Below are positions 29,656 to 35,842 of a stretch of 64,000 nt of DNA, in pieces. Within the stretch, counting starts at the first letter, position 1. Every line of letters starts with the position of its first letter. The notes below the pieces were generated by a model that ran no database searches, was not told the origin of the DNA, and was given only the letters and a program-made list of their open reading frames with translations. The translations under genes and the position numbers were made by a program. This DNA comes from Escherichia coli (GTDB lineage Bacteria; Pseudomonadota; Gammaproteobacteria; Enterobacterales; Enterobacteriaceae). The stretch lies in assembly GCF_036507355.1 (NCBI RefSeq), contig NZ_AP027877.1, one strand, 5' to 3'.

Positions 29656-31145
29656 AGCCAGTTCGAAAATGAGTATAACTATGAGTACATAAAAAACAAA
29701 TAATTAATAAAAATATATTAATCAATATGATATCACATAAGTTACGGTTCAACGTCTAATTAATTTATTGTCTCATGAGGTTTCGCTAAATCTCATGAAG
29801 AGCGCAAAAGTATATAAAATCCACGCAATTGCGTGGATTTTTCATTTCACCGAGTCCTAATCATTCTTGTAACATCCTACACTTTTGTGCTTATTGCCTA
29901 CAGTGAACCACGAGAATAATTAAAGACATAAGTGTTCAGATGACGGATATCTCATTAGCAGTGATATAACGTCAGTTTTTGTTCCACTACACATCAGCCC
30001 CCTTCACAGCTGATCAATATTGATCACGCTCCAATATACTGGCGAGAAAAGGACTTACCTGAAGGGTAATATCCCGCAGATAAAGTCCCCGAATAACGTG
30101 ATTACGTGCGATCCTGGCAAGATGAAAATGATAACCAATAGCACGATAATAACGATATGCCAGAACATCCATTGATCAAAAATGAATATCGATGTTTTTT
30201 GCTTTTTCTTATTAGTAATGCAAAAATGGCGCATATTGTTTTTGTTATGCAGATACATCAAGCGAAAATCCCATAACTAATTAGGATTATTACCAAAAAA
30301 TATTCACCAAATTATTTAACCGCTGTTTGTTGTAATGTTTTTGTCATATTCATAGTAACGAATTGGAATAAGTAACGACAACTTAGGGAATAACTCGATC
30401 TAAACTTACCTTTGTAATGGGGATGTTAAATATATATTAATTCCTGTGTTTCTGATTTTACCCGGTAATAGAGAATTATTCTCATAGCAGCTCATCATGA
30501 TTGCACCATACAAATATCATGATGATAAGAGGATATTATTCATTGACTTAAACAAAATGACAAAATTCATAGACCCATAGCCTGGGTACTATATAGGAGT
30601 GGTATGGGCATCAAACAACACAATGGGAATACCAAAGCCGATCGTCTCGCTGAATTAAAAATCCGTTCGCCCTCAATTCAACTGATAAAATTTGGCGCTA
30701 TTGGTTTGAATGCAATTATCTTTTCCCCCCTGCTGATAGCTGCTGATACAGGAAGTCAATATGGCACCAATATTACTATTAATGATGGTGACAGAATTAC
30801 AGGAGATACCGCCGATCCATCAGGAAACCTCTATGGTGTAATGACCCCAGCAGGAAACACGCCTGGCAATATCAACCTGGGTAATGATGTCACCGTCAAT
30901 GTCAACGACGCCTCTGGATATGCAAAAGGAATCATTATTCAGGGCAAAAACAGCTCCCTGACAGCTAACCGACTCACAGTAGATGTTGTTGGTCAAACCT
31001 CTGCCATCGGCATTAATTTAATTGGTGACTATACCCATGCTGACTTAGGCACAGGCAGCACCATTAAGAGTAACGATGACGGCATCATTATTGGGCATAG
31101 CTCAACACTAACAGCCACTCAATTAACTGAATCGCCACGGATAAT

Positions 31146-31958
31146 CTAGACACTTCCGAGCCGTTGATAATACTGGTTTTCATATTCTGTCGGTGACATC
31201 TGATCGCTGGAACCATGCCGACGCTTACTGTTATAAAACATTTCGATGTAATCAAAAATATCGCTGCGGGCTTCTTCCCGCGTTCCGTAGATCTTTTTCT
31301 TTATCCGTTCGCGTTTCAACAACTGGAAAAAGCTTTCTGCAACCGCATTATCATGGCAGTTACCGCGACGGCTCATGCTGCCATCCAGGCCGTGTGATTT
31401 CAGGAACGACTGCCACTCATGGCTTGTGTACTGACTGCCCTGATCCGAATGAACCAGCACCTGTTTTTGGGGATTACGGCGCCATACAGCCATCAGCAGT
31501 GCGTTCAGGACAATGTCCTTTGTCATCCGGGATTGCATGGACCAGCCGATAATTTTGCGTGAGAACAGATCAACAACCACGGCAAGATACAGCCAGCCTT
31601 CGTGGGTCCTGATGTAGGTTATGTCCGTTACCCAACGCTTATCCGGAGCATCCGGATTGAACTGTCGCTGGAGCCTGTTGGGCGACACGATACTGGCCTC
31701 GCCTTTACGTGCCCGCGGGCTCCGGTATCCGACCTGAGCCTTTATCCCGACACGTTTCATCAGTCGCCAGACTCTGTTCACTCCGCACTGTTGCCCGCTG
31801 TCCCGCAGATCCAGATGGATTTTGCGATAACCATAGACGCATCCCGATTCCAGCCAGAACTGTTTAATCTGCCCTGTCAGCCTCAGGTCTGCCTGATGGC
31901 GTTGTGAATGCGGCTGCTGAAGCCAGGCGTAAAAACCACTGGGATGAACATCCAGCAC
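31146..31958 (-). CDS. IS3-family OrfB transposase (DDE)
   Basis: 270-aa ORF with IS3-family integrase core (WVTDITYIRT ... HSDQGSQYTS ... HDNAVAESFF). Confidence 0.8.
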   Translation of the reverse strand: MLDVHPSGFYAWLQQPHSQRHQADLRLTGQIKQFWLESGCVYGYRKIHLDLRDSGQQCGVNRVWRLMKRVGIKAQVGYRSPRARKGEASIVSPNRLQRQFNPDAPDKRWVTDITYIRTHEGWLYLAVVVDLFSRKIIGWSMQSRMTKDIVLNALLMAVWRRNPQKQVLVHSDQGSQYTSHEWQSFLKSHGLDGSMSRRGNCHDNAVAESFFQLLKRERIKKKIYGTREEARSDIFDYIEMFYNSKRRHGSSDQMSPTEYENQYYQRLGSV

Positions 31959-32014
31959 CCGACAGAGCAGGCGAACAGGCCAGCAACAGGTGTTGTCACG
32001 GATAAAGGCGTACC

Positions 32015-32293
32015 TCAGTCGGACAGCTTTGCGAAGTACGCCGCGGCTTTTTTTAATATGTCCCGTTCGTCGGTAACCCGCTTCAGCTCTTTCTGGAGAC
32101 GGCGGATCTCGGCCTGAGCATCTGACTGTTCTTTATTAGCGGAAGAATCCGGACCGTACTTCTTTATCCAGGCGTAAAGGCTGTGGGTGGTGATATCGAG
32201 ACGTGTTGCAACGCTGGCAACAGAATAACCGCGATCAACAACCTGTTTGACTGCTTCAATTTTAAACTCTTCGGGATAACGCTTACCGCTCAT
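32015..32293 (-). CDS. IS3-family OrfA
   Basis: Short HTH protein (MSGKRYPEEFKIEAVKQVVDRGYSVASVATRLDI...) with a C-terminal leucine zipper, just upstream of OrfB. Confidence 0.8.
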   Translation of the reverse strand: MSGKRYPEEFKIEAVKQVVDRGYSVASVATRLDITTHSLYAWIKKYGPDSSANKEQSDAQAEIRRLQKELKRVTDERDILKKAAAYFAKLSD

Positions 32294-33215: not shown

Positions 33216-33250
33216 CGCTTCAATGGGAAATTGTTGTCGCCATTGTTCGA

Positions 33251-33553
33251 TTAACGCGTATTTTTCAGCGACTCCTGTGCAAAATACGCTGTTGCTTTTT
33301 TTAATATATCTCGCTCAAGGCGAGCTTCATTTAACGCCTTACGCAGTTGCAGAATTTCAGATTCCAGTTCAGCCACCGTGCGGGAACCAGGAGTACCGAG
33401 CCCTTTTCTGGCGGCGGTAACCCATTGTCCTAAAGTGCCTTCAGGAAGAGATAATCGGGAAGCGCCTTCACTGATCGAAAGTTGATTTTCAAGAACCGTT
33501 CTGACAGCTTCGGCTTTGAACTCTTTAGAGTAACGTTGGGTTTTTCTGCTCAT
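33251..33553 (-). CDS. IS600 OrfA
   Basis: 100-aa HTH/leucine-zipper protein MSRKTQRYSKEFKAEAVRTVLENQ... Confidence 0.85.
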   Translation of the reverse strand: MSRKTQRYSKEFKAEAVRTVLENQLSISEGASRLSLPEGTLGQWVTAARKGLGTPGSRTVAELESEILQLRKALNEARLERDILKKATAYFAQESLKNTR

Positions 33554-35842
33554 TATTAGCTCCTTCTGATGCCATTCTATTTCAGGAAGGAGTGTCCGTT
33601 AAACTCAGGCTACCTCACAAACAGTACCATTAAAACCAATGGCGATAATGCTCACGGCCTCTGGAGCTTTGGCCAGGTTAGCGCGAATGCACTCACTGTT
33701 GATGTAACTGGAGCCGCGGCCAATGGCGTCGAAGTTCGTGGTGGTACAACCACTATCGGTGCAGATAGCCATATTTCTTCCGCGCAGGGCGGTGGTCTCG
33801 TAGCCAGTGGTTCAGACGCGACAATCAATTTTTCTGGCACGGCAGCGCAACGAAACAGCATCTTTTCCGGCGGTTCTTATGGTGCCTCGGCCCAGACGGC
33901 AACGGCTGTTATCAACATGCAAAATACCGATATTACGGTTGATCGTAATGGCAGTCTGGCGCTGGGTTTGTGGGCGCTCAGCGGCGGTAGAATAACCGGA
34001 GACAGTTTGGCTATCACCGGCGCGGCAGGAGCCAGGGGGATTTATGCCATGACCAACAGCCAGATCGACCTCACGAGCGATCTGGTCATTGATATGAGTA
34101 CACCCGACCAGATGGCCATCGCAACGCAACATGACGATGGTTATGCCGCCAGCCGCATCAACGCTTCGGGTCGTATGCTTATCAACGGTAGCGTTCTCTC
34201 CAAAGGTGGGCTAATCAATCTGGATATGCACCCTGGGTCGGTTTGGACAGGTTCCTCCCTTAGCGATAATGTCAATGACGGGAAACTGGACGTTGCAATG
34301 AATAACAGCGTCTGGAACGTAACAAGTAATTCTAATCTCGACACGCTGGCGCTGAGCCATTCAACTGTCGATTTTGCCAGCCACGCATCAACTGCCGGCA
34401 CATTTACCACATTAAACGTAGAGAACCTGAGCGGTAACAGTACCTTTATTATGCGTGCTGATGTTGTTGGCGAGGGTAATGGCGTTAATAATAAAGGAGA
34501 TTTATTGAATATCAGCGGGAGTAGTGCTGGTAATCACGTATTGGCTATCCGCAACCAGGGCAGCGAGGCCACAACGGGAAATGAAGTTCTGACAGTGGTA
34601 AAAACCACTGACGGTGCGGCCTCGTTCAGCGCGTCTTCTCAGGTTGAGTTGGGGGGATATCTGTACGATGTGCGTAAAAATGGCACTAACTGGGAGCTTT
34701 ATGCTTCCGGGACAATTCCGGAGCCGACTCCAAATCCTGAACCAACGCCGGCTCCCGCTCAGCCTCCCATAGTCAACCCCGATCCTACGCCTGAACCCGA
34801 TCCTACGCCTACCCCCACTCCCACACCTAAACCCACCACGACCGCAGATGCTGGCGGCAATTATCTCAATGTTGGTTACTTATTGAACTATGTTGAAAAC
34901 CGTACGCTGATGCAACGGATGGGTGACCTGCGAAATCAGAGTAAAGACGGTAATATCTGGCTGCGCAGTTATGGGGGAAGCCTGGACTCCTTCGCCAGTA
35001 GCAAACTGAGCGGCTTTGACATGGGTTACAGCGGTATCCAGTTTGGTGGGGATAAACGTCTCTCTGATGAAATGCCGTTGTATGTCGGTCTGTATATTGG
35101 CTCAACACATGCATCGCCGGACTATAGCGGTGGCGACGGTACCGCACGTTCAGACTATATGGGAATGTACGCCAATTACATGGCACACAGCGGTTTTTAC
35201 AGCGATCTCGTTGTAAAAGCATCGCGCCAGAAAAATAGTTTCCACGTACGGGACAGTCAGAACAACGGCGTTAACGCCAACGGCACTGCGAATGGATTGA
35301 GCATCTCCCTGGAAGCCGGGCAGAGGTTCAACCTGACCCCTACTGGTTATGGGTTCTATATAGAGCCGCAAACCCAGCTCACATACAGCCACCAGAATGA
35401 GATGGCTATGAAGGCGAGTAATGGCCTCAATATACATCTGAATCACTACGAATCGCTGCTGGGGCGTGCCAGTATGATACTGGGATATGACATCACCGCA
35501 GGCAACAGCCAGCTGAATATGTATGTGAAGACTGGCGCTATCCACGAGTTTTCAGGGGATACAGAATATCTGTTGAACAACTCCCGGGAGAAGTACAGTT
35601 TCAAAGGTAATGGCTGGAATAACGGCGTGGGAGTCAGTGCACAGTATAACAAACAGCACACATTCTACCTCGAAGCGGATTACACGCAGGGTAACCTCTT
35701 TGATCAGAAACAAGTCAACGGAGGATATCGCTTCAGCTTTTAAGTGCGGGATAGACAAGCCCTTAAACGATGCTGAAAAATGTTAGCGTGCGCCGGAATG
35801 AAATATAGATCACTCTGATGTACCAGAAATCGTCTCTGTCTT

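Follow-up and report, generated by a model that had tools for sequence, protein, structure and literature searches.

How did an autotransporter gene of Escherichia coli come to hold two different insertion sequences (ISs) joined tip to tip? The question is raised by ycgV in a 64,000-nucleotide (nt) stretch of E. coli contig NZ_AP027877.1 (the window), where the split gene spans positions 30604-35743. The initial annotation of this stretch described a ycgV-like autotransporter gene inactivated by the end-to-end insertion of two IS3-family elements, an unassigned one and IS600. The analysis showed that ycgV is a pseudogene, most probably a recent one produced by at least three ordinary mobile-element events, namely two insertions and at least one deletion that has the ISEhe3-like element, the first of the two in window order, as its anchor. 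The locus is accordingly better described as two insertions with an IS-anchored deletion than as a double insertion.

Structure of the split ycgV gene

A nucleotide search of the locus was run against 5,426 complete E. coli genomes in RefSeq, the set to which all complete-genome results below refer. The flanks matched annotated ycgV and dhaR, and the central 2.5 kb consisted of IS elements scattered over thousands of records. The ycgV gene of E. coli ET826 (2886 nt, WP_001402194.1) was used as the intact reference. Window positions 29500-31124 aligned to ET826 with 97.5% identity and positions 33617-37000 with 98.6% identity, and the two halves were found in the same order, orientation and frame as in one intact ycgV, so that no departure from colinearity with a single gene was seen. 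The left half extends to ycgV nt 524 (nt 521 if an atypical AAC is excluded) and the right half starts at nt 761. Thus, ycgV nt ~522/525-760, a total of 236-239 bp, are absent. The dhaR-adjacent locus is kept, with dhaR and dhaKLM following ycgV as in other E. coli. Intact ycgV, as in ET826 and K-12, is an AIDA-type autotransporter gene next to dhaR which occupies the same locus between the ychF side and dhaR and encodes the same domains; unlike it, the window gene is split, does not have nt ~525-760 and has a barrel part without a signal peptide.

The open reading frame (ORF) at 30604-31149 encodes 181 aa and combines the start of ycgV with 22 nt of the ISEhe3-like element, with a stop codon at 31147-31149 and a product ending in ...TATQLTESPRII. 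The product has a signal peptide but only 174 YcgV residues and is identical to BED22764.1, 'hypothetical protein VEE46_25320 [Escherichia coli]', from a 4,643,937-bp chromosome. The rest of ycgV is carried in its native frame by the ORF at 33569-35743 (724 aa), which has a 49-nt 5' extension from IS600 with a possible ATG at 33569. Pfam domains of the 724-aa product were PF03212 (Pertactin), PF18883 (AC_1, weak) and PF03797 (Autotransporter). No intact ORF joins signal peptide, passenger and barrel, as the gene is broken at nt 524/761. No further lesions were found in the 3' fragment, which argues that the inactivation is recent. Since the barrel-containing ORF, which can start within IS600, has no signal peptide, no functional autotransporter is expected, and presumably no secretable YcgV is made. 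The inactivation proposed in the initial annotation is therefore borne out by the split, the 236-239 missing nt and the barrel part that has no signal peptide of its own. The coordinates of the features are given in Table 1.

Table 1. Features of the interrupted ycgV locus, in window coordinates (IRL and IRR, left and right inverted repeats).
Feature	Position	Strand	Content
ycgV 5' fragment	30604..31127	+	nt 1-524 of 2886; signal peptide and start of passenger domain
ISEhe3-like IS3-family element, complete, 1229 bp	31128..32356	-	full-length matches, ends and ORFs
Junction TCA/GGT	32354..32359		intact ISEhe3-like IRL tip joined to IS600 3 nt inside its IRR; TGA absent
IS600, 1261 of 1264 bp	32357..33617	-	IRL intact, IRR without 3 nt
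ycgV 3' fragment	33618..35743	+	nt 761-2886: remaining passenger and beta-barrel; native frame, open

The two insertion sequences

The gene is interrupted by two distinct members of the IS3 family arranged head to tail, with the coordinates and content that had been proposed. For each of the two, near-identical matches extend over more than 1.2 kb and are therefore not due to chance. The IS600 copy showed 99.4% identity over 1261 bp to a copy in NZ_CP065615.1 labelled 'IS3-like element IS600 family' by the Prokaryotic Genome Annotation Pipeline (PGAP). Both of its reading frames are open on the minus strand (orfA at 33251-33553, orfB at 32397-33215), with an A7G slippery site at element position 316. 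The IRL tip at 33617 is intact and reads CTACCTCA on the plus strand. The canonical right tip in three independent copies is TGAGGTGTACTGG, compared to TCAGGTGTACTGG in the window, so that the IRR tip has TCAGGTG in place of TGAGGTG and the copy falls short of the complete 1264 bp. From the chemistry of the IS3 family, the window copy is probably immobile because the terminal CA-3' of its IRR is lost.

The other element had been left unassigned. It was matched along 80% or more of its length by 187 E. coli records, with 99.9% identity over positions 1-1229 in the best of them, and six fetched copies had the same ends as the window copy, TGAATCGCC...GGCGATTCA. The IRR tip at 31128 (TGAATCGCCACGGAT...) and the IRL tip at 32356 (...ACCCGTGGCGATTCA) were exact in all six. 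Both tips begin with TGAATCGCCACGG..., with 22 of 30 arm positions identical, and show the 5'-TG...CA-3' termini of the IS3 family. On the minus strand, orfA runs from 32293 to 32018 (92 aa) and the orfB frame extends down to 31149, with a stop codon at 31146-31148. An A7G slippery site is found at element position 303, and Pfam hits on identical ORFs were HTH_Tnp_1 for OrfA and rve, rve_2 and rve_3 for OrfB, as in the two-ORF organisation with a -1 frameshift of the IS3 family. PGAP labels identical copies 'IS3 family transposase, programmed frameshift'. OrfA was 100% identical to UniRef A8Y8E1_ECOLX, 'ISEhe3 transposase A', and the name ISEhe3 is taken from this label only; ISEhe3 is classed in the IS51 group of the IS3 family (PMC10425158). 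Thus, of the two identities in the initial annotation, IS600 stands and 'unassigned' is replaced.

Among the six fetched copies, three had a perfect 3-bp target site duplication (TSD; CGG, GCG and CTT) and one had two of three positions matching. The window copy has no 3-4 bp TSD, with flanks AAC and GGT. The ISEhe3-like element makes TSDs, and at the window copy the duplication has been erased. Retrieval of other ISEhe3-like copies of the source genome by exact OrfB returned only a 1258-bp repeat contig from Logan. A promoter scan showed a promoter-like site resident in the ISEhe3-like IRL (32341-32313). A hybrid junction promoter of the IS911 Pjunc type was also looked for; none spans the junction, and only resident promoter-like sites within each IRL were found.

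Junction between the elements and the missing DNA

On the coding (minus) strand, IS600 runs from IRL to IRR and is followed directly by the ISEhe3-like element, also from IRL to IRR. As both transposases are on the minus strand, the IS600 IRR faces the ISEhe3-like IRL. The letters at the junction are ...GGCGATTCA joined to GGTGTACTGG. The initial annotation had the termini 'abutting or overlapping by about 3 bp', and comparison of the IS600 right tip with canonical copies showed that these three shared bases are the TCA tip of the ISEhe3-like element. No TSD was found around the ISEhe3-like element (AAC on one side, GGT... on the other), around IS600 (which is followed by CAA) or around the pair. 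The locus has the marks of an adjacent deletion, as the endpoint is an exact and intact IS tip, the flanking DNA is missing compared to intact alleles and there is no TSD.

No place in any complete genome covered at least 80% of the locus split by both ISs, neither IS was found at these ycgV sites in any of them, and the junction of the ISEhe3-like element with IS600 had no true match. A pattern of the junction with a spacer of 0-9 nt gave nothing in 100,044 GTDB species representatives. Other candidates were rejected: a junction match of 83% was composed of two unrelated pieces, 13 extra matched nt in many genomes (query 188-400), which resembled a conserved composite, were a chance extension into unrelated flanks, and two 'IS3 family transposase' matches near ycgV belonged to another IS, located upstream of a ycgV gene that is intact.

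The last 3 nt before the ISEhe3-like IRR tip (31125-31127) are AAC (Leu codon TTA), compared to CAC (Phe, in TATQFTIENS) in all other alleles examined, including alleles identical to the window over YcgV residues 1-173. AAC could have arisen by faulty repair of a duplication, from a spacer that was carried over, or as a single-nucleotide polymorphism by chance. Two other copies have duplications with one mismatch, one of the ISEhe3-like element (GTA/GTT) and the IS629-like one in ET826 (AAC/CAC).

Close relatives

A near-clonal draft genome, GCA_905398585.1, has the identical left junction, with 100% identity over 29748-31201. Relatives on the right side were found via the exact DhaR protein, and their contigs were 99.97-99.99% identical to the window. 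Contigs of GCA_905398585.1 and SRR17480487 end inside IS600, which is retained, and show the same junction of IS600 with ycgV.

The contig of SRR32181686, 99.975% identical over 12.1 kb, showed a different state. It reads ...GTTAAACCCGTGGCGATTCA / TACCTCA / CAAACAG (GAGGTGTCTGTTAAACCCGTGGCGATTCA / TACCTCA / CAAACAG), so that the same ISEhe3-like IRL tip is followed by only the terminal 7 nt of the IS600 IRL, after which ycgV resumes at nt 761. Nearly all of IS600 is deleted, and the ISEhe3-like tip is again the fixed endpoint. This state would be a further IRL-side deletion and, as it reaches 7 nt from the far IS600 end, it fits stepwise growth of an IS-anchored deletion. A deletion between the TCAGG pentamers at 32354-32358 and 33605-33609 was rejected as its origin, because it predicts GATTCAGGCTACCTCA and GATTCATACCTCA was observed.

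Origin of the present structure

The structures of the window locus and their differences from intact alleles and relatives are read directly from the sequences. We infer from them how the events were ordered and that a transposase was involved. Both elements make TSDs elsewhere (TTA around IS600 in E. coli FDAARGOS_943; CGG, GCG and CTT around ISEhe3-like copies). The loss of approximately 240 bp of ycgV and of the 3 terminal bp of IS600, together with the absence of TSDs, requires a minimum of one deletion with the ISEhe3-like tip as its anchor. IS600 now lies at ycgV nt 760/761 and the ISEhe3-like element at nt ~524/525, in the same orientation. In the proposed sequence of events, the two elements would have inserted separately. 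The ISEhe3-like transposase would then have joined one of its own ends to a nearby site on the same molecule by intramolecular strand transfer ('adjacent deletion'), with loss of the intervening DNA. Two orders are equally parsimonious. In order (a), the ISEhe3-like element would first insert at ycgV nt 522-524, and a deletion on its IRL side would then extend to 3 nt inside the IS600 IRR; in order (b), it would first insert into the IS600 IRR tip, with GGT duplicated, and a deletion on its IRR side would then reach back to ycgV nt 524. The mechanism and all of its components are of kinds already known. A second IS3-family element in the window, the IS629-like copy at 11722-13031, likewise has a deletion that begins at its tip, of 7.17 kb of Zorya genes.

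Several observations weigh against this sequence of events. A precursor with both ISs and the 240 bp between them, or with IS600 alone at nt 761, was looked for and not found, so the order was not observed. The relatives of the locus are short-read contigs that end inside an IS, and the junction of the two elements was seen in the window only. The variant with the 7-nt remnant comes from one run, the only one in which its 54-aa and 608-aa products were found. A clean insertion or a clean strand transfer does not explain AAC for CAC at the IRR tip, and both junctions are off the canonical position '3 nt outside the IR' of IS3-family chemistry.

The end-to-end insertion of the initial annotation, taken as the sole process, with one IS3-family element landing at the tip of the other, agrees with the head-to-tail abutment, and IS30 and IS911 are documented to produce IRL-IRR junctions by insertion directed to inverted repeats (IRs) (PMC9333248, citing Loot et al. 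2002). However, no DNA is lost in a pure insertion, and here ycgV is short of ~240 bp and IS600 of 3 bp, and no 3-bp TSD surrounds either element or the pair; as a complete account it is refuted and very improbable, and an insertion of one IS into the tip of another survives only as a possible first step of order (b). A different route to the missing TSD, the exact tips and the unrelated flanks AAC and GGT would be RecA-mediated homologous recombination between two ISEhe3-like copies in the same orientation, one at nt 522-524 and one at the IS600 tip, with deletion of one copy and the interval. The element is multi-copy in the source genome and recombination between ISs is listed as a frequent cause of missing TSDs (PMC11708052), but this route requires two insertions of the same element in the same orientation within 245 bp and a separate event for the SRR32181686 variant, and its two-copy intermediate was not found, which makes it unlikely.

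The structure at ycgV is also compatible with a one-step insertion with deletion, in which the ends of an ISEhe3-like circle attacked sites ~245 bp apart, or the element entered a break, in either case leaving no TSD. Some IS arrivals do coincide with deletions and have no TSDs, such as IS5 in E. coli C (PMC11708052). All 14 cases of IS150, an IS3-family element, were instead two-step adjacent deletions (PMC11708052), and SRR32181686 shows the ISEhe3-like end making further deletions, so that a single step is judged quite unlikely here. Mis-assembly across repeats could in principle have placed the ISs together and dropped 240 bp, as the source genome is absent from the set of complete genomes searched and the IS-IS junction is without independent confirmation. 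Both outer junctions were exact in independent assemblies, repeat collapse does not give an IS600 tip truncated by 3 bp on an exact IS tip, and a relative has a related, larger deletion anchored at the same tip; an artefact is therefore extremely improbable. Two insertions followed by deletion from the ISEhe3-like tip remain the preferred explanation.

Comparison with known systems

One of the closest parallels is found in the E. coli long-term evolution experiment, where 14 of 83 IS events were deletions beside a pre-existing IS, all of them at IS150, none with a TSD, and often small at first and growing over time (PMC11708052). As in those IS150 deletions, the deletion at ycgV starts from the exact tip of a resident IS3-family element and has no TSD. 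The sizes of IS150 deletions start at tens of bp, with stepwise extension in descendants, to which the window and SRR32181686 can be compared (PMC11708052). Unlike IS150, the present case concerns an ISEhe3-like member (IS51 group according to PMC10425158) in a natural isolate, with endpoints inside another IS and an unobserved precursor.

The locus also resembles the IR-targeted insertion of IS911 and IS30, as reviewed in PMC9333248, in having an IS end beside a terminal IR in a head-to-tail IRR-IRL arrangement. The orientation fits such an insertion, but instead of an intact target IR with a spacer of a few bp, the IR is cut 3 nt inside its tip. Unlike the IS911 and IS30 cases, the target IR belongs to a different element, the join lies 3 nt (or 7 nt) inside the IR instead of next to a complete tip, the junction creates no promoter and the ISEhe3-like case is known from sequence alone. 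The transposases of the ISEhe3-like element and IS600 are 39% identical, and their IRs are identical at 15-18 of 30 positions.

The one unusual feature of the locus is that both known endpoints on the ISEhe3-like IRL side lie within the terminal 3-7 nt of the IS600 IRs (3 nt in IRR, 7 nt in IRL). By a rough estimate and no formal test, endpoints placed at random over ~1.5 kb would give two within 7 nt of an IS600 tip about 1 in 10^4 times. From these two junctions of one clonal lineage, one of them from a single run, it could be suggested that the ISEhe3-like transposase prefers IS600 terminal repeats as strand-transfer targets (cross-element IR targeting), an idea that we regard as doubtful. 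If true, it would mean that one IS progressively erodes and immobilises another.

E. coli FDAARGOS_943 (NZ_CP065615.1) offers a comparison for the same gene and the same IS, with ycgV interrupted by IS600 and annotated as two pseudogene fragments. It differs in the site (~nt 410), in the opposite orientation and in having a full 1264-bp IS600 with a 3-bp TSD (TTA), no second IS and no deletion. This independent insertion shows that ycgV has been struck repeatedly by IS600 in E. coli. An additional internal stop was seen downstream in the FDAARGOS_943 ycgV (positions 3856-8008 of the extracted NZ_CP065615.1 locus). The window thus adds another route by which ycgV, a non-essential adhesin-type autotransporter gene, is lost in E. 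coli, and its value is mainly for annotation.

IS activity in the lineage

The initial annotation had taken the locus as a sign of active IS expansion of the Shigella type. Recent IS activity is confirmed, and a Shigella-like scale is not demonstrable from a 64-kb window. In favour of expansion, a second IS-adjacent deletion is present in the window, a near-clonal isolate has a further deletion at ycgV, and the genome contains a minimum of four more accessions for the exact OrfB variant (BED21537, 21860, 21997 and 22359), which together with the window copy gives at least five identical ISEhe3-like OrfB copies. Against a Shigella-type scale, the record is labelled Escherichia coli, only four ISs are found in 64 kb (IS1 at ~2147-2914, the IS629-like copy at 11722-13031, the ISEhe3-like element and IS600), and no IS occurs in the right 25 kb, which is colinear with ordinary E. 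coli. IS activity in the lineage is real and recent and, taken with the neighbouring Zorya loss and the sister-isolate variant, the locus indicates that IS3-family elements are currently remodelling it.

Neighbouring regions of the window

The element at 11722-13031 is a 1310-bp IS629/IS1203-like member of the IS3 family. Compared to ET826, which is otherwise 99.98-100% identical to window 1-27329, the window does not have 7,170 bp directly to the left of the IS629-like tip (left flank ~11700-11721). The missing 7,170 bp contain the 3' part of zorA1 together with zorB1, zorC and zorD, and the type I Zorya anti-phage system is therefore destroyed. Both breakpoints of this deletion share the pentamer AAAAC. 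The IS1 copy at ~2147-2914 is common to the window and ET826, and ET826 (locus 39434-40629) has an extra ISKpn26 between the equivalents of 27329 and 27326 which is not in the window.

Window 1-29747 (boundary at 29747/29748) is part of an island of ~52 kb which in ET826 lies between ychF and ycgV. The island has an integrase gene near each end and carries a type I restriction-modification system, Zorya, SIR2 and an ars remnant. One of these two integrase genes, the P4-like one at 28247-29482, is 100% identical to ET826, while the adjacent ycgV backbone is only ~98% identical. The draft GCA_905398585.1 is 100% identical from 29748 rightwards and has ychF directly to the left of this boundary, so the island is present or absent within the lineage. 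No tRNA gene was found in the 64-kb window.

Finally, window 39001-64000 forms one colinear piece with E. coli chromosomes, with a best identity of 99.1% among the complete genomes and coverage of at least 80% in only 2,134 of the 5,426. Complete genomes in RefSeq represent this backbone lineage poorly. This region includes a TonB-dependent receptor gene and, judging from the Pfam domains of neighbouring genes in the contigs of relatives, genes of the ATP-binding cassette iron-uptake type next to treA.

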